7,603 nt of DNA from a virus (lineage: Duplodnaviria > Heunggongvirae > Uroviricota > Caudoviricetes). The translations under genes were made by a program, and so were the position numbers. The stretch spans positions 1-7,603 of IMG/VR virus record IMGVR_UViG_2663763286_000014. One strand, 5' to 3'. Below the pieces are notes generated by a model, which was given only the letters and a program-made list of their open reading frames with translations, made no database searches and had not been told where the DNA came from. Of this stretch, positions 1 to 7,603 are shown piece after piece. Position 1 is the first letter of the stretch. Each line of letters starts with the position of its first letter.

Positions 1-327
1 TCATTTTTTCCAGAGGCGGTCGAACTCCGCCTTCGCAAAATAAGCGGAAGCCTGGCGAAGGATATCGTTACTGCGGCGCAGTTCACGATTTTCACGTTCC
101 AGCTCTTTCAGACGCTGACGTTCAGCGGTGGTGAGTCCACCATCACCACTCCCGGTATCCCGCTCATGCTGACGAACCCACACACGCAGAGTCTCTGGTG
201 TACAGCCAATCTTTGGGGCAATGGAACAAATTGCCGCCCATTGTGAGTCATATTCGCCCTGACTTTCCAGAACCATACGAACTGCCCGTTGACGGACCTC
301 GGGGGAAAAACGTGTATTTTTAGTCAT
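1..327 (-). CDS. IS3-family transposase OrfA (HTH DNA-binding subunit, 108 aa)
   Basis: Complete [25 protein letters not shown]...[36 protein letters not shown], with the N-terminal HTH and C-terminal leucine-zipper-like region typical of IS3-family OrfA (recognised as IS629/IS1203-type). SD AGAGG lies 8 nt upstream of the ATG at 327. The ORF ends WKK-stop over an A-rich run (GGAAAAAATGA) at the window edge. Confidence 0.9.
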
Positions 328-381
328 CCTGTTTACCTCTTTCTCAGGGAGTTTAGTCTCCAGGATTTCCGGGGCGGTTCA
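1..381 (-). mobile_element. Left end of an IS3-family insertion sequence (IS629/IS1203-like); the rest of the element lies beyond the window start
   Basis: Reverse complement of 328-381 reads TGAACCGCCCCGGAAATCCTGGAGACTAAACTCCCTGAGAAAGAGGTAAACAG, a typical IS3-family terminus (5'-TGA...) that matches the IS629 left end as I recall it, with about one difference. It is followed directly by an OrfA-type transposase gene. The element/host junction is at 381/382. Confidence 0.85.
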
Positions 382-806
382 GTACAACCAGCATGATCTT
401 CTATGAGCATCTTCAGCCACGAGTTCTCCTCCGCCAGCGTCACGCGACTGGCCTCCAGTTCTGCTACGCGCTGTTTTGCAGCATCCAGTTCAATCGACAA
501 TTTTTCCAACTGCTCTTTATGCTTTTTATATTCCTGATATGCGTGCCAAGACTGACCTTTGCGCACACTATCAGTGATATCAGCAACCTGCTCTGGTGTT
601 AGCGTGGTCAGTGGCTGTGCTGGGAAAATAAGCACTTTCCCGGAATCCCAATCAAAACCAGCATGAATTGACTGAACCTCAACTGAAGGTGTTGAACCAA
701 TGCTGCCAGGCGAATGAACAACGATCGTTACATCCATATCGCGACGATGGCTGTGGTTGTTGGACAAAATACGATTCACCAACTCAGAAAATTTGGAGAA
801 TTTCAT
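382..806 (-). pseudogene. Phage hypothetical protein (coiled-coil C-terminal part), 3' end truncated by the IS insertion
   Basis: ORF 333-806 starts at the ATG at 806 (SD TGAGG, 6-nt spacer) and reads without a stop across the IS junction at 381; the last ~16 codons ([16 protein letters not shown]) are IS-encoded. The native C-terminus is therefore missing. The native part (~141 aa) has a heptad-like stretch, KEQLEKLSIELDAAKQRVAELEASRVTLAEEN. Confidence 0.6.
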
Positions 807-814
807 GCGGAGCC

Positions 815-1225
815 TCAGTATGTAAAATAGACAGTTGCCACGCCGTTATAGTGATCAAACGATACGGCATTTACTTCGTAGCTGGCAGGGAGCTTCGATC
901 CGAGAACGTATCCGGGCCACGTTTTCCATGGAATTTCTCTGCGCTCACTATCGCCATATACCGTACATCCCAGAGAGCCTACAGCTTCATTAGAACGCGT
1001 GCCGCACGTTATGAATCCCAGATTTTGCTTACTGCTCTTAATGGTGATTGGGTGAACGCTGGCTGATGCATTAGCAGCACGCTGTGCCTGTTGGTTTGCG
1101 ATATTCGCAGAGTTCGCAGCAGCTACAGCAGCCGTAGTCGCGGCGGTAGAGGCTACAATAGCTGCTGAAGCATGCACTTGTTGGATATTCACCAACAATG
1201 CCGCGACAAAAATCATCTTCTTCAC
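815..1225 (-). CDS. Secreted/periplasmic protein with signal peptide and Ala-rich low-complexity linker (136 aa)
   Basis: N-terminus MKKMIFVAALLVNIQQVHA-SAA is a classic Sec signal peptide with an AxA cleavage site and no lipobox cysteine. It is followed by an Ala/Asn/Gln-rich linker, then a ~70-aa domain with two Cys. The start overlaps the upstream stop in an ATGA arrangement (1222-1225), indicating translational coupling. Confidence 0.7.
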   Translation of the reverse strand: MKKMIFVAALLVNIQQVHASAAIVASTAATTAAVAAANSANIANQQAQRAANASASVHPITIKSSKQNLGFITCGTRSNEAVGSLGCTVYGDSERREIPWKTWPGYVLGSKLPASYEVNAVSFDHYNGVATVYFTY

Positions 1226-1572
1226 TTGTCAGCTCCTTTGCGAATCTGTTCCGCCCATTCTTCAAGGGATTTCTCCGCATATTCACCGGACAGGCCATCA
1301 ATCGGGTACGGTTCATTAGCCAACTCTTCTTTCGCTGACAGAATCATGCGTGTAACGTCGAAAACTTCACGCAAAGACTTATTGATAAATCCGTGATTGA
1401 AAGCAGCAGCAAGACGGCTTGCGGTATAGTTAATACCCTCGTTGCGAGCCTCAGCACGTACTTCATCGAATTTACGCACCAGATACTCAGCATTTGTTTC
1501 ATTCACTTTCAGATCTCGCGGTACACATTTCCCGCGAAGAAACCCTTCCATTTCGAAAACATTCATGCGCAT
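1222..1572 (-). CDS. Hypothetical phage protein (116 aa; possibly YfdS-like)
   Basis: ORF MRMNVFEMEGFLRGKCVPRD...; charged, helical-looking sequence. The ATG at 1572 has GGAG 8 nt upstream; an alternative ATG at 1566 forms an ATGA overlap with the stop of the upstream HD-domain gene. Tightly packed within the leftward operon. Confidence 0.7.
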   Translation of the reverse strand: MRMNVFEMEGFLRGKCVPRDLKVNETNAEYLVRKFDEVRAEARNEGINYTASRLAAAFNHGFINKSLREVFDVTRMILSAKEELANEPYPIDGLSGEYAEKSLEEWAEQIRKGADK

Positions 1573-2099
1573 TTGCGTAACTCCGATAACTCGTTAAAAC
1601 GTTCCATAAACATCCCATAGGCATGGCCTGGCGACAGTGGAATAACTTTGAACATCTCTGTTGCCGGGATACCTTCCAGTACAGGCCAGAAAGAGCCATC
1701 ATCAAGCCCGAGATCGCGGCGTTCGGTTGCCAGCATAATGAGATCGGCATATTTCACTGGCGTGCTCATAACAGGAGGTAACCCGTATTTCTCACGGATT
1801 ACGGCGTCTATTTTTTCTTCCATCTGTTTATAGTCAGGAAGAAGGCGTTTCAGTGGCGCGGGGATGTCCTGACAATACGCTTCTGTTGCATCATGCATTA
1901 ACGCTTCAAAAGCAAACTCCTCCGGAACCAGTTTGCTGCAAAGCACCGCATGTTGGGCGACGCTGTAGAAGTGTGAAAGATGACCGGCAAAGCGACAGAT
2001 ATTTGAAAGGGAAACTGCGATATCGTTAATCACGATGTCGTCTTTATTTATCCTGTCATAATAAAAATGCTTCCCGGAAAAAGTTTTAATAAATGACAT
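1563..2099 (-). CDS. yfdR: HD-domain phosphohydrolase (YfdR-like 5'-deoxynucleotidase family, 178 aa)
   Basis: Contains H...H (HFYSVAQHAV) and HD (LMHDATEAY) metal-binding motifs characteristic of the HD superfamily. Start chosen at the internal ATG at 2099 (MSFIKTF...) because it has GGAG with a 6-nt spacer; the longer 199-aa extension to 2162 has no RBS. Length and neighbours (274-aa and 120-aa genes) match my memory of the CPS-53 yfdP-yfdQ-yfdR block; the symbol is from memory, not a search. Confidence 0.8.
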   Translation of the reverse strand: MSFIKTFSGKHFYYDRINKDDIVINDIAVSLSNICRFAGHLSHFYSVAQHAVLCSKLVPEEFAFEALMHDATEAYCQDIPAPLKRLLPDYKQMEEKIDAVIREKYGLPPVMSTPVKYADLIMLATERRDLGLDDGSFWPVLEGIPATEMFKVIPLSPGHAYGMFMERFNELSELRKCA

Positions 2100-2227
2100 T
2101 TTGTTCTCCACTTTATATGCGCTGCACCGCGCTGAATTTTGGTTAAAGAAAACCCTCGCCATCAGGCGATTATTGAGTTAATTACGTTTCCATAAATGCC
2201 CCCGCAGGGGCATTTGCAGTAATGAAA

Positions 2228-3052
2228 TCAGGCGGTGAAAGTACCAATAAAGGTTTCTACTTTGCTGTCTTTGAATTTCTCAACAAGCAGATCACGAAAT
2301 TCGTTAGCCATTTCTTCCTGCATCGCTTCCAGCTGAATAATGCGCAGAACCAGTACAGGACGATCGCCAGTGATAATGCTGAGGCGTAATTTAAACGGAC
2401 GTTCTTTCAGGCCTTCAAACGGAACGCATTTAAATTCAAATGCCACTGGCATAATGTCTTTGGTTTTCGCTTCGACAGACTCCATCAGAGAGCGTTTGCC
2501 GCTGAAGTCATTGTCTTCAAAATCAGCGGTCTGGTTTGCTTCAATTGTGATTTTACGGACTGCCGCAGCCGCTTTGGTTGCCTGAATGGTGTCACCATTA
2601 GCATCAAAGCCCACAAGGTAGTCGGCCCAGTCTTCAATCCATTCTGCCAGTGACTTCTGGGAGTTACGCTCGCCATTAACAGACAACAGAGCAGAAAACG
2701 GTGCTGTCTTTTTCAGTTTGAGGGTGGCGGTGTTATCTGCGTGACCTGGTTCATCAATAGTACCCAGGTTAAGCACACTGACGGCTCGCATATTATCGGC
2801 ATCGATAAAGCAGCGGGTGCCTTCATCTGCAAGATCTTTAGAATAACGGGTAAAGTCATCGATGCTGGCAGTGGAAAGCGCACCACGGAAACGGAAGCGA
2901 TTTAAATTAAATTTTTCCAGATCATGAATGCGGAAATTCTCAGGCAATGCCACAGCATCGGCACCAATCTTACTGATAATTTCATTAACACCCTGAGCAG
3001 AAATAAGGGCATGGATTTGATTAATTGCGGTTGCGTCTAAGTTCTGAGACAT
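2228..3052 (-). CDS. yfdQ: Hypothetical phage protein, YfdQ-like (DUF2303-type, 274 aa)
   Basis: Long uninterrupted ORF with protein-like composition. Strong SD (GTGAGGA, 6-nt spacer) before the ATG at 3052. Same length as K-12 YfdQ as I recall it, and sits next to the HD-domain gene; function unknown. Confidence 0.8.
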
Positions 3053-3117
3053 AATAAGTCCTCACTATATAAAGATATTCAGTGATGAGATAAATAATCA
3101 GTTAATTAAGAACGATA

Positions 3118-3480
3118 TTAATGACCTGCTGCGCGGAGTTTTCCGTCAGGTTCACCGGCAAGAGTCAGTAATTGTCCCTGGTCTTCCTGCAGAATAGTCA
3201 GGCGACCACCGCGATTGACATACATCGGTGTTTCGGTGGTGTCTTCTTCGGAAATTTTCCCGCGGTTAGTCGGGCGAACATATGAGAGTTTGTGTTTGAT
3301 TTTCACACGGTTCTCATCAAATGGTTCGATTTCCAGGTTGAGCGAGACCTTACCTTTGGTTTTCGTGTTCATCACACCGGAAGCGACTTCACTGAGAACA
3401 GCGCCGATTTTGGTTTCAAATACGCCGCCGTCCAGCTCCCCGATAAATGCCTGCACATCAGTACTGCGTTCGCTAGCCAT
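3118..3480 (-). CDS. Hypothetical phage protein, YfdP-like (120 aa)
   Basis: ORF MASERSTDVQAFIGELDGGVFETKIGAVLSEVASGVM... starts at the ATG at 3480 with strong SD GAGGAG (7-nt spacer). The ORF-track extension to 3798 (226 aa) upstream of this ATG looks like non-coding sequence (Arg/Cys/Leu-rich, GC-rich, no RBS). Confidence 0.8.
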   Translation of the reverse strand: MASERSTDVQAFIGELDGGVFETKIGAVLSEVASGVMNTKTKGKVSLNLEIEPFDENRVKIKHKLSYVRPTNRGKISEEDTTETPMYVNRGGRLTILQEDQGQLLTLAGEPDGKLRAAGH

Positions 3481-3917
3481 TTTGCTGCTCCTCATCATAT
3501 CGACCCTGCAAGGTCGGTTGGTTTCTCCACAAAACAGAGAAGAACACCTGCGGTGACAGCCGCCCGGATGGATTGGGTTATGAGCCCGTCGTCCGGTGAT
3601 GCTCTTCTCTGTTTTGTAAAAAGAGCGGTACCAGCCGGAAGCAAGGGTACAAACTGGTACCGCCAGGACTACACACAGCATAAAGTTGTGGTGCCGGGTG
3701 CCTCCCGGTGCCTGGCGAAGGTTGCACACCAGGCGGGTGGGTATCCACAGAAGGTCGACTGTCAGCCTCAACCTTAACCCGCGTGCGCTGAGCCGCATTC
3801 ACCACAACGCTAAGGATTCTCTCTGGTTGAAAATACTTAGCTGTTATGTGCCTGTCTTTTCACCACTTCAGGCTCGGTGGTATCCTTTTAAGCCCGTATA
3901 CATAAAAGGAAAATCAA
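3481..3917. other. GC-rich structured non-coding island (candidate regulatory RNA/processing region) between the yfdP-like gene and an 81-aa gene
   Basis: No protein-like ORF in any frame. Perfect 15-bp inverted repeat (3529-3543 ACAAAACAGAGAAGA / 3603-3617 TCTTCTCTGTTTTGT) enclosing ~59 nt. 10-bp GC-rich stem 3625-3634/3654-3663 built on three GGTAC(C) units. Tandem 10-mers CCGGGTGCCT/CCCGGTGCCT at 3694-3713. Confidence 0.35.
3611..3663 (-). terminator. Candidate intrinsic terminator for leftward transcription
   Basis: On the minus strand: stem GCGGUACCAG, 19-nt loop, CUGGUACCGC, followed immediately by UCUUUUUAC. The loop is long for a canonical terminator, and the palindromic GGTACC units allow alternative pairings. 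Confidence 0.3.
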
Positions 3918-4163
3918 ATGACTTTTGATGAAAAAGAACTTGATAATGCAATTAATAAAATCATCGTAACGTCGCTCTTTTCCTGTCTCAGCGACACTCA
4001 GCAGAAACAGTTCTACGAATCGGCTTTCAACATGATCGAGCGTTGTTGTTTCTGCGATGCCTACGAGTTACCTGAAAAAATCAGGAAACAGTTGGCTGAT
4101 GCTCTTCGAGTGCGACTTTCTGACCAATTTTCTGAAATGTGCTCTCCGAATTTGGACAAATAG
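3918..4163 (+). CDS. Small Cys-containing hypothetical protein (81 aa), rightward gene embedded in the leftward early region
   Basis: ATG at 3918 preceded by AAGGA (7-nt spacer). Protein-like helical composition with an ERCCFCDAYELPEK motif. More AT-rich than its surroundings. Overlaps the 3' end of the convergent minus-strand gene by 83 nt. Confidence 0.55.
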   Translation: MTFDEKELDNAINKIIVTSLFSCLSDTQQKQFYESAFNMIERCCFCDAYELPEKIRKQLADALRVRLSDQFSEMCSPNLDK

Positions 4164-4356
4164 AAAAAGGCCATTTCCATTCAGGGTCTGATGGAAATAC
4201 TTCAGCCTGTTCCAAAGCACGGCGTAAAGAGAACACAACTCCAGCCATAATCTGATGTTTCCCATTGGCCCAGCTATCGCCGCTCTGATCTACATGGGCG
4301 GCTATGTCGTATGACCAAACGACTTCACCACTATTGTTTAAAATCTGGACTTTCAT
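4081..4356 (-). CDS. Hypothetical protein, first gene downstream of the pL-like promoter (91 aa from ATG 4356; alternative ATG at 4377)
   Basis: ATG at 4356 has SD AGGTG with a 7-nt spacer; the upstream ATG at 4377 has no SD. Protein-like sequence MKVQILNNSGEVVWSYDIAAHVDQSGDSWANGKHQIMAG... Not Arg-rich, so not an obvious lambda-N-type antiterminator. Confidence 0.55.
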   Translation of the reverse strand: MKVQILNNSGEVVWSYDIAAHVDQSGDSWANGKHQIMAGVVFSLRRALEQAEVFPSDPEWKWPFSICPNSESTFQKIGQKVALEEHQPTVS

Positions 4357-4471
4357 TTCATACACCTGCTTTAACATGAGTGCCTAGTGGCACAACATGA
4401 CTCAACGAATCATCCTGGACTTCATATGCCCCAGGCGGCTACTTCGTGGGCGTCCTGCCTGTTCGTTACTG

Positions 4472-4523
4472 CAACATCTTTAAGTTGTAATCTAGTTGTT
4501 GTTTTGGTTGTTGTCAACAACTT
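4472..4523. promoter_or_regulatory. Left operator region (OL-like): two operator-like elements overlapping pL
   Basis: Element 1, CAACATCTTTAAGTTG (4472-4487), and element 2, TTGTCAACAACTT (4511-4523), each have a near-identical copy in the pR region (CAACATCTAAAAGTTG at 5450-5465; TTATCAACAACTT at 5498-5510). Both are built from inverted CAAC/GTTG half-sites. Confidence 0.5.
4489..4517 (-). promoter_or_regulatory. pL-like early leftward promoter (-35 TTGACA, 17-bp spacer, -10 TAGATT)
   Basis: On the minus strand, the perfect -35 hexamer TTGACA (4517..4512) and TAGATT (4494..4489) are separated by 17 bp. Overlaps the operator-like elements shared with the pR region. Confidence 0.6.
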
Positions 4524-4579
4524 TATGTGGTTTTGACGGATGTGAAATGAGGGCAAGGGTTATCAAAAAAGGAGGTTGT

Positions 4580-4684
4580 ATGGACGATGCGCTTTTAATT
4601 ACACAATGGACACTTTCCTTCCGTGATTGGAAACTCTCAAATCACGGGAGGAAGATTGAAAAGGCGGGTAATAATGGTAACTAA
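4580..4684 (+). CDS. Possible small ORF (34 aa) with strong SD, convergent with the repressor gene; uncertain
   Basis: AGGAGGT at 4570-4576 then ATG at 4580 (short 3-4 nt spacer). Peptide MDDALLITQWTLSFRDWKLSNHGRKIEKAGNNGN. The ORF encloses a 14-bp hairpin (4615-4628/4640-4653). Could instead be a non-coding structured element. Confidence 0.25.
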   Translation: MDDALLITQWTLSFRDWKLSNHGRKIEKAGNNGN

Positions 4685-4711
4685 ATTTCTGAAGGAATGT
4701 TTTTTGATGCA

Positions 4712-5398
4712 TTACCAAGTGCGCGATGACCAGAATACTCTACCTATAACGTGAATTCTGGAACGCCTATCTTCGAAGGTGAGTATTTCATCTGGATACT
4801 CATCTTTATTGAAACTTCTTAGAATCAGACCACCGTCAGGTAAATTGATCAATATTTTAACTCTAAGTAATACGCCATCACGTATAGCATAAAGATCCCC
4901 ATCACGAATAGGAACTGTTTGGGAAACATCAACAGCAACAAAATCTCCATTGTTAAGTACAGGTAGTAAACTATTACCCCAAATTTTTACGATCTTTGCA
5001 TTGGAGACACATACACCAGCTTTTCTTAAATCAATCCTTCTTAGCGGGAACCAGTCTACAGTTGATTCAACTATTTCAGCCAAACATCCATTACCCGCTG
5101 ATAACTCGACATCTAGGACAGGAATGTTTGCAAAAATGTCAGGATCTAATGTTGTACTTTCAGCCTCCTTTACAACAAGGTCTGGGAAAGACGCGTTATC
5201 CTCAATGCCCAATTGCAACCACTTTTGAGAAACCCCTAACACTTTAGCAATCTCTTTAATTTTCCGAGGCTGTTGAGTTTCTCCATTCTCGATTTTTGCT
5301 ACGGATTGTTGTGAAAGCCCAATTTTTTCAGCTAGTTGCGCCTGACTCATTCCTGCTTTTTCTCTTTCGCTTTTTAGTCTTTCTGCCAATGTTTTCAC
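4712..5398 (-). CDS. CI-like prophage repressor: N-terminal HTH (XRE family) plus C-terminal S24 LexA-like autopeptidase (228 aa)
   Basis: HTH region MSQAQLAEKIGLSQQSVAKIENGE. Putative Ala-Gly cleavage site (LSAGNG). Ser nucleophile in GNSLLP and Lys in LLRVKIL, as in LexA/lambda CI. GTG start at 5398 with SD GAGGGGG (7-nt spacer). Divergent from the cro-like gene. Confidence 0.92.
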   Translation of the reverse strand: MKTLAERLKSEREKAGMSQAQLAEKIGLSQQSVAKIENGETQQPRKIKEIAKVLGVSQKWLQLGIEDNASFPDLVVKEAESTTLDPDIFANIPVLDVELSAGNGCLAEIVESTVDWFPLRRIDLRKAGVCVSNAKIVKIWGNSLLPVLNNGDFVAVDVSQTVPIRDGDLYAIRDGVLLRVKILINLPDGGLILRSFNKDEYPDEILTFEDRRSRIHVIGRVFWSSRTW

Positions 5399-5449
5399 AA
5401 CATATCCCCCTCGTTTTTATTGAGGTTACAACTTTATGTTTTAGCTTTC

Positions 5450-5510
5450 CAACATCTAAAAGTTGTGATAAAAGTTGTTGTAGTTGTATAATCGAAGTTA
5501 TCAACAACTT
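5450..5510. promoter_or_regulatory. Right operator region (OR-like) between the repressor and cro-like genes
   Basis: Copies of both operator-like elements (CAACATCTAAAAGTTG at 5450-5465 and TTATCAACAACTT at 5498-5510) flank and overlap the pR -35/-10; additional AAGTTGT/ACAACTT half-sites at 5426-5436 and 5471-5486. Confidence 0.5.
5463..5492 (+). promoter_or_regulatory. pR-like early rightward promoter (-35 TTGTGA, 18-bp spacer, -10 TATAAT)
   Basis: Perfect -10 TATAAT at 5487-5492 and -35 TTGTGA at 5463-5468, about 45 bp upstream of the cro-like start; SD AGGAG at 5524-5528. Confidence 0.6.
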
Positions 5511-5535
5511 TACTACTTACAGATAGGAGAAAGCT

Positions 5536-5784
5536 ATGACACCTGAGCAATTAGCCTTATCAGAGGCAATCGCTCTGGCTGGTGGTCAATCAGAATTGGC
5601 TCGGAAGCTCACAGCCAGCAGTGGTCGTTTAGTAAAGCAACAACATGTCTGGAACTGGTTGAACAGAGAAAAGCGTCCCCCTGCAAAGCTCTCGATATTC
5701 ATTGAAATGACCACTGGCGTATCAAAAGAAAAATTACGTCCAGATATTTTTCAAAAGATTAAAGACTTATCAGATGGAAAGTAA
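5536..5784 (+). CDS. Cro-like/YdaS-family HTH regulator (82 aa)
   Basis: ATG at 5536 with AGGAG 7 nt upstream. Small HTH protein (GGQSELARKLTASSGRLVKQQHVWNW). First gene of the rightward operon, divergent from the CI-like repressor. Confidence 0.85.
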   Translation: MTPEQLALSEAIALAGGQSELARKLTASSGRLVKQQHVWNWLNREKRPPAKLSIFIEMTTGVSKEKLRPDIFQKIKDLSDGK

Positions 5785-5806
5785 CCACAGTTTTAAGGAG
5801 ATAGCC

Positions 5807-6358
5807 GTGGGTAAGCATCACTGGAAAGTAGAAAAACAGCCTGAGTGGTACGTGAAAGCTGTCAGAAAAACTATCGCGGCGTTGCCGGGTGGTTACGCTG
5901 AAGCAGCTGAGTGGCTGGATGTAACAGAGAACGCTTTATTCAACCGCCTTCGTGCCGATGGTGATCAGTTTTTTCCGTTGGGATGGGCAATGGTTTTACA
6001 GCGTGCGGCTAGTACACATTACATTGCGGATGCTGTCGCACAGTCTGCTGGTGGGGTGTTTGTATCACTTCCTGAAATTGAGGAAGTAGAGAACGCTGAT
6101 ATCAACCAACGTCTACTGGAAGTCATTGAACAGATCGGGAGTTACTCAAAGCAGATTCGTTCGGCAATCGAAGATGGGGTAGTGGAGCCACATGAACAGA
6201 CAGCAATTAATGATGAGTTGTATCTGTCAATTTCGAAGCTCCAGGAGCATGCAGCACTGTTCTACAAAATCTTCTGCGCTTCAGAAAAGAGTGACGCCCG
6301 CGAGTGTGCAGCTCCGGGCGTCGTGGCGTTTTGTGTCCGTGGAGAAACTAACGCATGA
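5807..6358 (+). CDS. CII-like phage regulatory protein (CP76/YmfL-like); 183 aa from GTG 5807, or 194 aa if started at ATG 5774
   Basis: GTG at 5807 has a strong SD AAGGAG (6-nt spacer); the ATG at 5774 lies inside the cro-like gene's 3' end and has no SD. The stop TGA (6356-6358) overlaps the next gene's ATG (6355-6357), an ATGA coupling. Confidence 0.8.
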
Positions 6359-6693
6359 ACAGTTTAACAACACTCTACCGTCGTTCGCAACTGATTGCGC
6401 TTCCTGTACCGGGTGGAAAAGCGAAGGTGGAGTATTGCTATGCAGTGAATGTACCAGGTGACAGGGAAATTGTAACCCACAGCTTTGCAGAGTGGGCTGT
6501 GGGTGATTTCAACCGGCAGAAGGAGACAGTCCTTTGCGACAAGTTAACCGCTGGTTCAAAGATCACTACGGAGTGCCCGTCAGAGTCATTCGTTGGGAGC
6601 CGGAAACACAACGGGTTATCTACCTCCGTGAAGGCTATGAACATGAATGCTTCAGTCCGCTCGAACAGTTTCGTCGTAAATTCAGGGAAATAG
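6355..6693 (+). CDS. ymfM: YmfM-like protein (112 aa); e14 YmfM has been reported as an SOS-inducible cell-division inhibitor
   Basis: ATGA-coupled to the upstream gene and ends 9 nt before the O-like gene's RBS; length matches e14 YmfM as I recall it (112 aa). The N-terminal half is protein-like; the C-terminal half is Ser/Asn-rich low complexity and is overlapped by an alternative-frame ORF. Symbol from memory and context, tentative. Confidence 0.6.
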
Positions 6694-6702
6694 AGGTCGG
6701 TC

Positions 6703-7603
6703 ATGAGCCTGTTAATGACATCCCAGCCCATTGTGATAAATCGTGATCTTGCATGCCGTATTGGTCTGAATGAGGCAATTGTGTTGCAGCAGCTTCATTA
6801 CTGGCTGAATGAAACGAATTCAGGCACTGAGCATGGCGGAATTCGCTGGGTTTATAACACGACAGAACAGTGGCTGGAGCAGTTTCCGTTCTGGTCAGAG
6901 TCCACTCTGAAACGCACATTTGCAAGCCTGAAATCACTTGGGGTTTTGCGTCGCGAGCAACTCAATAAATCGAAGCGTGACATGACCAATTTCTACACGA
7001 TCAACTATGAAAGTGAGCTTTTAGAAGAGGTCAAAGTGAACGAATCCATCAGGTCAAAATGCACTTCTCCATCGGGTCAAAGTGACCTGATGGATGGGCG
7101 CAAAATGACACGATCCATTGGTTCAAAACGACACGCTGTCATCGGGTCAAAATGGCCCAATGATCTTACAGAGAATACAACAGAGATTACTACAGAGAAT
7201 AAAACCTCTTCTCGTCCGGACGCTTCGCAACCGGACACGCAAACGGCTGAACAGGAGTTTTTAACTCGCCATCCTGATGCGGTTGTATTCAGCCCTAAAA
7301 AGCGCCAGTGGGGAACGCAGGATGATTTGACCTGCGCACAGTGGCTCTGGAAAAAAATCATCGCCCTGTACGAGCAGGCCGCCGAATGTGACGGCGAGGT
7401 GGTTCGTCCCAAAGAACCGAACTGGACAGCCTGGGCAAACGAAATTCGCCTGATGTGTGTGCAGGATGGTCGTACCCACAAACAAATCTGCGAGATGTAC
7501 AGCCGCGTCAGCCGCGATCCGTTCTGGTGCCGTAACGTGCTCAGCCCGTCGAAGTTGCGGGAAAAATGGGATGAGCTTTCCCTGCGCTTATCGCCGTCCG
7601 TCA
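6703..7603 (+). CDS. Lambda-O-like replication initiation protein (replisome organiser), 5' partial; runs off the window end
   Basis: ATG at 6703 with GAGG 6 nt upstream; open frame to 7603 with no stop (checked codon by codon). N-terminal domain MSLLMTSQPIVINRDLACRIGLNEAIVLQQLHYWLNETNSG...WSESTLKRTFASLKSLGVLRREQ is typical of phage replication-initiator N-terminal domains. Origin iterons and an AT-rich tract are embedded in the linker, as in lambda O. Confidence 0.85.
   Translation, partial: MSLLMTSQPIVINRDLACRIGLNEAIVLQQLHYWLNETNSGTEHGGIRWVYNTTEQWLEQFPFWSESTLKRTFASLKSLGVLRREQLNKSKRDMTNFYTINYESELLEEVKVNESIRSKCTSPSGQSDLMDGRKMTRSIGSKRHAVIGSKWPNDLTENTTEITTENKTSSRPDASQPDTQTAEQEFLTRHPDAVVFSPKKRQWGTQDDLTCAQWLWKKIIALYEQAAECDGEVVRPKEPNWTAWANEIRLMCVQDGRTHKQICEMYSRVSRDPFWCRNVLSPSKLREKWDELSLRLSPSV
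7028..7158 (+). repeat. Replication-origin iterons (4-5 copies, core GGTCAAARTG) inside the O-like gene
   Basis: TCCATCAGGTCAAAATGCAC (7045-7064), TCCATCGGGTCAAAGTGACC (7068-7087), TCCATTGGTTCAAAACGACAC (7114-7134), GTCATCGGGTCAAAATGGCCC (7138-7158), plus a partial copy AGAGGTCAAAGTGAACG at 7027-7043. Followed by an AT-rich tract with ACAGAGAAT/ACAGAGATT repeats (7162-7205). Confidence 0.6.

Follow-up and report, generated by a model that had tools for sequence, protein, structure and literature searches.

The yfdP-yfdQ-yfdR cassette in the early-left operon

We have analyzed a stretch of 7,603 nucleotides (nt) of a tailed phage (IMG/VR record IMGVR_UViG_2663763286_000014, positions 1 to 7,603; "the window" below means this whole 7.6-kb stretch), which contains the immunity and early-left region of a lambdoid prophage. 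Inside its repressor-controlled leftward early operon are located three minus-strand genes, yfdP, yfdQ and yfdR. The comparison with other genomes indicates that YfdP and YfdQ form an obligate pair, found next to replication and recombination genes in several phages, while YfdR is an optional companion. The three genes, already delimited in a preliminary description of this DNA, are indeed minus-strand open reading frames (ORFs) with strong family matches:

3118-3480, minus strand: yfdP, 120 amino acids (aa), phrog_204 (E=1.2e-49)
2228-3052, minus strand: yfdQ, 274 aa, DUF2303, PF10065 (E=8e-92)
2100-2227, minus strand: yfdQ-yfdR spacer, 128 nt, with hairpins at 2194-2215 and 2156-2169
1563-2099, minus strand: yfdR, 178 aa, phrog_318 (E=8e-109)

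The cassette is very similar to that of prophage CPS-53 (KpLE1) of Escherichia coli K-12. The proteins were 99% (YfdP), 98.5% (YfdQ) and 96% (YfdR, over all 178 residues) identical, and the DNA identity was 96.8% over positions 1466-3499 of the window. With a threshold of 90% identity, the block was also found in 145 phage genomes from the databases, including Stx-converting phages, SfV, mEp460 and Ayreon, as well as in many E. coli chromosomes. The gene order and spacing in the CPS-53 cluster yfdP-yfdQ-yfdR-yfdS-yfdT are those of the window, except in the downstream genes: in the window yfdS is represented by a mosaic gene, followed by an ORF that is not homologous to yfdT. The window copy differs as well in that it retains the immunity region and the leftward promoter pL, and in being cut by an IS3-family insertion element. 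A 2025 survey by Zheng, Casjens, Smith and colleagues (PMC12315714) had described, in LLS, ST64B and phiNP, a three-gene yfbR/yfdQ/yfdP cluster located in the early-left operon. These phages share with the window the three gene families, the early-left position, the absence of recombination (Rec) genes and the presence of Chi sites, although their proteins are about 57–67% identical to those of the window, and the obligate YfdP-YfdQ pair was not set apart there from the optional YfdR. Judged by its sequence, yfdP-yfdQ-yfdR is an already catalogued cluster of lambda-like prophages, and the window brings no new type of element. The preliminary description had considered the function of the cassette as unknown, overlooking both the description of the cluster (PMC12315714) and a study in which YfdR was found to bind DnaA and yfdQRS/T to inhibit initiation (PMC4776307). 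The other mentions of YfdR or YfdQ that we found in the literature were reference-list citations only.

The three genes had also been thought to be translationally coupled. Actually, the yfdP stop is separated by 65 nt from the yfdQ start, and the yfdQ stop by 128 nt from the yfdR start, and the only ATGA overlap is the one between the yfdR stop and the start of the yfdS-like gene (1563-1566), at the edge of the interval first noted. Each of the three genes has its own Shine-Dalgarno sequence. The start chosen for yfdR was the ATG at 2099, which is preceded by a GGAG Shine-Dalgarno and agrees with the K-12 annotation, although the longest ORF would begin at 2162 (199 aa). Among relatives the median gaps were 52 nt between YfdP and YfdQ and 103 nt between YfdQ and YfdR. 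Of the two hairpins in the yfdQ-yfdR spacer, the second has a T-rich tail (fold z=-3.1 for the spacer), and they are possibly an internal terminator or attenuator. A related phage record has a terminator annotated somewhere within the matched stretch from yfdS to yfdP.

YfdP and YfdQ are found together in all the loci

We have examined a species-level set of 80 loci, with one genome per species, in which YfdQ was 41-99% identical to that of the window. The set spans Enterobacterales, Vibrio, Photobacterium, Marinobacter, Hahella and pseudomonads. A match to the YfdP profile was located directly upstream of YfdQ, on the same strand, in all 79 loci having upstream DNA. Like in these genomes, in every distant phage examined (Xanthomonas CP2 and MET23-P3, ArgO145, Vibrio 24E30.2 and 1.232.O, Pseudomonas pAN and Acinetobacter 4316) the small ORF upstream of YfdQ was a YfdP homologue (E=1e-15 to 1e-53). 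The scan of viral contigs with the YfdQ alignment gave loci that were all 99-100% identical to the window and that, being nearly the same sequence, do not provide independent evidence. A search for the pair in plasmids produced 23 records, mostly chromosome-sized or phage-like, and no leading-region context among them. YfdR was found after YfdQ in 61 of the 80 species-level loci, and has besides a much wider distribution of its own. The three genes cannot therefore be considered a single unit, as they had been at first.

YfdQ is an acidic protein (isoelectric point 5.0) of a single-domain family of constant length. It matched PF10065 with 307.7 bits (cut-off 26.6) over model positions 2-269 of 269, and phrog_210 with E=7e-120. 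At 50% identity the family falls into 1815 clusters. Those among the best 150 are mostly 249-302 aa long, with a few shorter fragments; no fusions of the YfdQ-family domain were found among these best 150 of the 1815. The most conserved polar residues are E46, R56, T61, H104, Q132, E140, D141 and R166. As for YfdP, all of its close homologues have a precomputed match to PF27127, and the window protein gave no Pfam match because this family was missing from the Pfam copy used. The YfdP model (AlphaFold 2; predicted local distance difference test, pLDDT, 81) has a long helix, a three-stranded sheet and, at residues 70-105, a conserved acidic and Gly-rich tail; the pLDDT of the YfdQ model was 77.

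Gene neighbourhood and relation to recombination modules

The preliminary description had placed the cassette in the position normally occupied by recombination genes. This is correct in so far as lambda, P22 and HK620 have their Rec module there. No exo, bet, gam, erf, recT, sak4 or abc homologue was recognised in the window, and Pfam, PHROG and NCBIfam detected in it no SSB, nuclease, annealing or RecBCD-inhibitor gene (the ORFs of the window were outside the phmmer screen that follows). We searched 160 loci (the 80 species-level ones and 80 viral ones that, being nearly identical to the window, are not independent; 5-6 kb around the pair) by phmmer with lambda Exo/Bet/Gam, P22 Erf/Abc1/Abc2/Arf, Rac RecE/RecT, HK620 Sak4/SSB and CP2 Erf/Exo/SSB as queries, and found no Rec homologues near YfdP-YfdQ apart from three SSB matches. 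In many of the genome loci xis-int appeared within two to five genes, indicating that the search extended over the entire operon, as in Proteus (P-Q-R-xis-int) and one other genome (P-Q-xis-int). The same operon position is thus shared with the canonical lambdoid Rec module, but the cassette proteins have no sequence or fold similarity to SSB, exonuclease, annealing protein or RecBCD inhibitor.

On the other hand, the pair adjoins complete Rec modules elsewhere. In ArgO145 (L172:5991-9822) the order is Kil-Gam-RecT-Exo-SSB-YfdP-YfdQ, with the pair contiguous with the Rec module, and in Xanthomonas CP2 and MET23-P3 it is YfdP-YfdQ-DUF1351-Erf-Exo-(Endo)-SSB. Replication and recombination genes are also neighbours in Vibrio 24E30.2 (DnaQ-like exonuclease-YfdP-YfdQ-SSB), VvAW1 (YfdP-YfdQ-x-SSB), Acinetobacter 4316 (DUF2800-DUF2815-YfdP-YfdQ-PolA-clamp-VRR-NUC-helicase), and Proteus and Hahella (YfdP-YfdQ-SSB). 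An Rv2179c-like 3'-5' DEDD exonuclease is another frequent neighbour, found in 16 of the 80 loci and in Vibrio and Pseudomonas phages. The presence of the pair beside complete Rec modules, as in ArgO145 and CP2, argues that it is not a disguised replacement of them. The link with recombination by gene context made in the preliminary description is therefore upheld, but not the idea of a replacement: YfdP-YfdQ is a companion of replication and recombination genes and no positional substitute.

According to PMC12315714, which has a panel of 325 phages, about 78% of lambdoid phages have a Rec module and about 22% have none and are Chi-rich instead. Hidden recombination proteins in the cluster were judged unlikely by those authors because ArgO145 has both cluster and Rec module. 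They termed that module "separate" from the cluster, whereas we found the pair abutting its SSB gene. The window has two Chi sites GCTGGTGG, at 5578-5585 and 6047-6054, both on the plus strand and in the same orientation, while 0.18 would be expected.

Fold searches and a solved YfdQ homologue

It had been proposed to look for a RecT, Erf or Rad52-like strand-annealing fold in the 274-aa protein and for a Gam-like fold in the 120-aa one. We found no fold or sequence similarity of YfdQ to a known annealing protein, or of YfdP to Gam. Foldseek comparison of the YfdQ model with the PDB gave nothing at E<0.001 in a structure library reaching to April 2026 that did not include entry 9o7m. This entry was the only one found by PDB profile searches with the YfdP and YfdQ alignments. 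A weak RNase H-like sub-match of YfdQ does not lead us to propose a nuclease, since D84, in its first strand, is not conserved. The cassette encodes no recognisable strand-annealing protein or RecBCD inhibitor. For YfdP, inhibition of RecBCD would be argued against, indirectly, by LLS, which carries the cluster and nevertheless has its growth enhanced by RecBCD (PMC12315714).

The PDB sequence file of 9o7m, named "YfdQ Protein", contains 36 chains of one 274-residue sequence, which matched the window YfdQ with E=1.4e-44 and the family profile with E=5.9e-87, and has a nearly identical counterpart (98.8%) in Xanthomonas phage MET23-P3. The family, the length of 274 aa and, in the nearest phage genomes, a YfdP homologue directly upstream are as in the window, but the identity to the window YfdQ is about 38%, and in its phages the genes that follow are DUF1351-Erf-Exo-SSB, with no YfdR. 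The chain count suggests that this YfdQ homologue is a large oligomer. The Erf, DUF1351, major capsid and YfdP proteins of the 9o7m-like phage gave no related PDB deposits, so that 9o7m is not part of a detectable virion or Rec-complex deposit. A literature search for "9O7M" produced irrelevant papers only.

YfdR, an HD protein that binds DnaA

The alignment with E. coli YfbR showed that H50, H69, D70, E73, D78 and D119 of YfdR are invariant, indicating that its HD site is intact, as had been noted before for the H...H and HD motifs. These six positions would be the catalytic ones of YfbR, as reported by Zimmerman et al. (2008). The HD fold and the metal and catalytic residues are thus shared by the two proteins, which are 22% identical. 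YfdR also matched the solved HD protein PDB 2gz4 (E=1.6e-13). PHROG and PGAP label it a deoxynucleoside monophosphate (dNMP) phosphatase, or 5'-deoxynucleotidase, the activity assigned to it in the preliminary description. The intact site and these annotations support the assignment, but the scores are below the curated cut-offs for YfbR (25.2 against 25.9 bits for PF12917; 21 against 122 bits for NF003009), and on these scores YfdR is a related HD protein and not an equivalog of YfbR. Its affinity for nucleotides is reported to be much below that of YfbR, as cited in PMC4776307.

The experimental evidence on YfdR comes from K-12. The purified protein binds domain I of DnaA in a Phe46-dependent manner and competes moderately with DiaA and DnaB (PMC4776307). 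In the same study, multicopy yfdQ plus yfdR plus either yfdS or yfdT blocked initiation at oriC and suppressed over-initiation, yfdQ and yfdR both being needed for this suppression and yfdP dispensable, and multicopy yfdQRS/T increased resistance to hydroxyurea. With 96% identity to the tested protein, the YfdR of the window is predicted to bind DnaA domain I as well, something that YfbR is not known to do. The comparisons made in PMC4776307 were with SirA of Bacillus subtilis, which like YfdR uses the Phe46/Phe49 patch of DnaA domain I, and with lambda P, another DnaA-binding factor blocking host initiation. Lambda P differs in having domain III as its target and in serving as the helicase loader of the phage, YfdR being an HD enzyme, and neither lambda P nor SirA is related to YfdR in sequence.

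YfdR was found in 330 phage records, many of them of lytic phages of hosts without a recorded YfdQ match (such as Caulobacter, Bacillus and Stenotrophomonas). In the species-level set its slot is held by a DHH/DHHA1 phosphoesterase in one locus (Phytopseudomonas, L162:6353-7750) and by SSB genes in Proteus (L146:5887-6384) and Hahella (L155:5866-6276). It is absent from the carriers of Rec modules ArgO145 and the Xanthomonas CP2-like phages.

Control region and flanking genes

The remaining features of the window are the following:

1 to about 393: end of the IS3-family element (IS629/IS1203-like), with an ALIL frameshift pseudoknot at 1-46
333-806, minus strand: 157-aa ORF, its 3' end substituted by the end of the IS3-family element
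815-1225, minus strand: 136-aa ORF, GTG start, GTGA overlap (1222-1225) with the stop of the yfdS-like gene; phrog_8805
1222-1572, minus strand: yfdS-like mosaic gene, 116 aa, its start overlapping the yfdR stop (ATGcgcATGA)
3616-3838, minus strand: STnc100-like structured RNA between pL and yfdP, with a terminal GC hairpin and a U-run
4081-4377, minus strand: first ORF of the leftward operon, 98 aa, phrog_3195, function unassigned
4470-4535, minus strand: leftward operator and promoter (OL/pL) region, with a sigma-70-like promoter at 4517-4489 (TTGACA and TAGATT separated by 17 nt) and operator-like palindromes across it
4712-5398, minus strand: cI-like repressor gene with HTH_3 and Peptidase_S24 domains, opposed by plus-strand genes
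Plus strand, facing the repressor gene: cro-like gene and CII/YmfL-like gene

The operator-like palindrome CAACAnCTTTAnGTTG appears in five copies, distributed between the leftward promoter-like site (4472-4534), just downstream of the cI-like repressor gene, and a rightward one (5428-5512). This layout of promoter, operators and repressor indicates that the operon had been correctly described as a pL operon. A hairpin with 17-nt arms is located at 4615-4653, immediately past the repressor gene. The product of the 98-aa ORF is not Arg-rich and is therefore not N-like. On the opposite strand within the leftward operon, an 81-aa ORF (phrog_3311, 3918-4163, plus strand) overlaps the 3' end of the 98-aa one, at the position where sieB-type exclusion genes are found in lambda, P22 and HK620.

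The STnc100 family (RF02076) was matched over its full length, the score of 46.5 bits falling just short of the gathering threshold of 47 (E=8.5e-8; fold z=-4.2). The element could encode a small RNA (sRNA), serve as a leader or terminator, or act in cis as an antitermination element. We observed no N-like protein in the operon that carries it. STnc100 has been related to the PasD sRNAs in a 2026 preprint. A second STnc100 match across the yfdQ-yfdR spacer was weak (23 bits) and was taken as not significant.

At the other side of the cassette, the similarity of the yfdS-like product to K-12 YfdS is limited to its first 42 residues. The product of the 136-aa ORF is unrelated to K-12 YfdT and has a signal-peptide-like N-terminus, and may be a secreted or envelope moron. 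The IS3-family element breaks the early-left operon, so the prophage of the window is probably defective.

Possible functions of the cassette

The explanation that we favor, with a probability of about 0.45, is a composite one, in which a YfdR module directed at DnaA shuts off the initiation of host replication and a YfdP-YfdQ complex takes part in DNA transactions. Upon prophage induction, transcription from pL would pass the structured RNA and the terminator-like elements, and the cassette would be expressed. YfdP and YfdQ would then form a complex that acts, possibly together with SSB, on intermediates of replication or recombination. YfdR, with YfdQ and a third small protein, would stop initiation at oriC early after induction of the phage, and DnaB and the rest of the replisome could in this way be freed for the phage origin. 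A weak dNMP phosphatase activity of YfdR might have a second role, directed at the nucleotide pool. Two observations concern YfdQ itself: its overproduction provoked the production of another resident phage (a preprint of the Wood laboratory), and its mutants were mildly sensitive to methyl methanesulfonate (MMS) and hydrogen peroxide (H2O2), as cited in PMC4776307.

Several points weigh against this explanation. Initiation was blocked only when the genes were on multicopy plasmids, their deletion had no effect on it, and an artefact of overexpression is considered possible by the authors of the study (PMC4776307). In the pull-downs of that study YfdQ, YfdS and YfdT gave no stable binding to YfdR or DnaA, and YfdP, the invariant partner of YfdQ, was the gene product that the initiation assay could do without. 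Since about a quarter of the loci have no YfdR, DnaA targeting is not the core function of the pair, and with a mosaic yfdS-like gene and no yfdT homologue the third component of K-12 may be missing in the window. As for the proposed complex, we infer the contact between YfdP and YfdQ and the binding of DNA by either, the fold models of both are of moderate confidence, and the oligomeric state of YfdQ rests on a chain count and not on coordinates.

The pair could instead be an unrecognised recombination system, an annealing or mediator complex or a helper of host RecBCD or RecA, taking the place of the Rec module in those lambdoid phages that lack one and are rich in Chi. The scarcity of Rec homologues in the 80 species-level and 80 viral loci, with the operon often fully covered, fits this idea, and so do the location of the pair right beside SSB and exonuclease genes in several lineages and the excess of Chi sites in the window. 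The many chains of 9o7m point in the same direction, as annealing proteins typically form large oligomers. To this may be added the presence of a Rec module in most lambdoid phages (PMC12315714) and the sensitivity to MMS of the yfdQ deletion, again as PMC4776307 cites it. Nevertheless we consider this explanation unlikely, because the pair occurs together with complete Rec modules in ArgO145, where the annealase is RecT, and in CP2, where it is of the different Erf family, LLS-type phages depend on host RecBCD and Chi, with a recombination role judged improbable by those who described them (PMC12315714), and the anticorrelation with Rec (0 of 80 species-level loci) could reflect inheritance as a block in one type of mosaic operon.

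Rather more doubtful is a nucleotide-directed or anti-defence module, with YfdR and the exonuclease destroying dNMPs, oligonucleotides or signalling nucleotides and YfdP-YfdQ inhibiting or sponging a host defence. The catalytic site of YfbR type is intact in YfdR and the PHROG and PGAP names agree with this activity, but the scores of YfdR fall under the YfbR family cut-offs. The phosphoesterase found once in the YfdR slot, the DEDD exonuclease neighbours, the abundance of YfdR-like genes among lytic phages and the early-operon location, typical of counter-defence genes, are also in its favor. One phage enzyme of this kind is Dmp, the pre-early 5'-deoxyribonucleotidase of T5. The neighbours of the pair, however, are DNA-transaction genes and not known anti-defence genes, and a ligand or a defence phenotype for YfdP or YfdQ is purely hypothetical. 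No PADLOC model matched, and this has little bearing on counter-defence as PADLOC models defence proteins. We give still less credit to a cargo of benefit to the lysogen, by which leaky expression from a (cryptic) prophage would raise tolerance to oxidative, acid and alkylation stress via slowed initiation. Deletions of yfdQ and of yfdS make K-12 sensitive to H2O2 and MMS (as cited in PMC4776307), the effect of multicopy yfdQRS/T on hydroxyurea resistance goes in the expected sense, and the cassette is kept in defective prophages, including the IS-interrupted one of the window. But the deletion phenotypes are weak, and the pair is conserved beside replication genes in lytic-looking Vibrio and Xanthomonas phages. 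Moreover, the genes should be silent in the lysogen, since pL is under repressor control and one or more terminator-like structures precede them.

Going back to the composite explanation, its second half could be extended: YfdP-YfdQ might be a large oligomer of novel fold, representing a class of phage DNA-transaction complex not recognised before and acting with SSB and nucleases at replication or recombination intermediates, and in Rec-less, Chi-rich lambdoid phages it might be the sole contribution of the phage to recombination-dependent replication. This extension is tentative, and we would sooner doubt it than rely on it. YfdR, for its part, is among the few phage-borne proteins known to bind DnaA domain I, and as such is of use in research on the takeover of host replication by phages. 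The remaining interest of the cassette lies in YfdP-YfdQ, an obligate unit of a family with about 1,800 clusters and no recognisable fold relatives, carried in early operons by phages of Escherichia, Vibrio, Pseudomonas, Acinetobacter and Xanthomonas, both temperate and lytic-looking.

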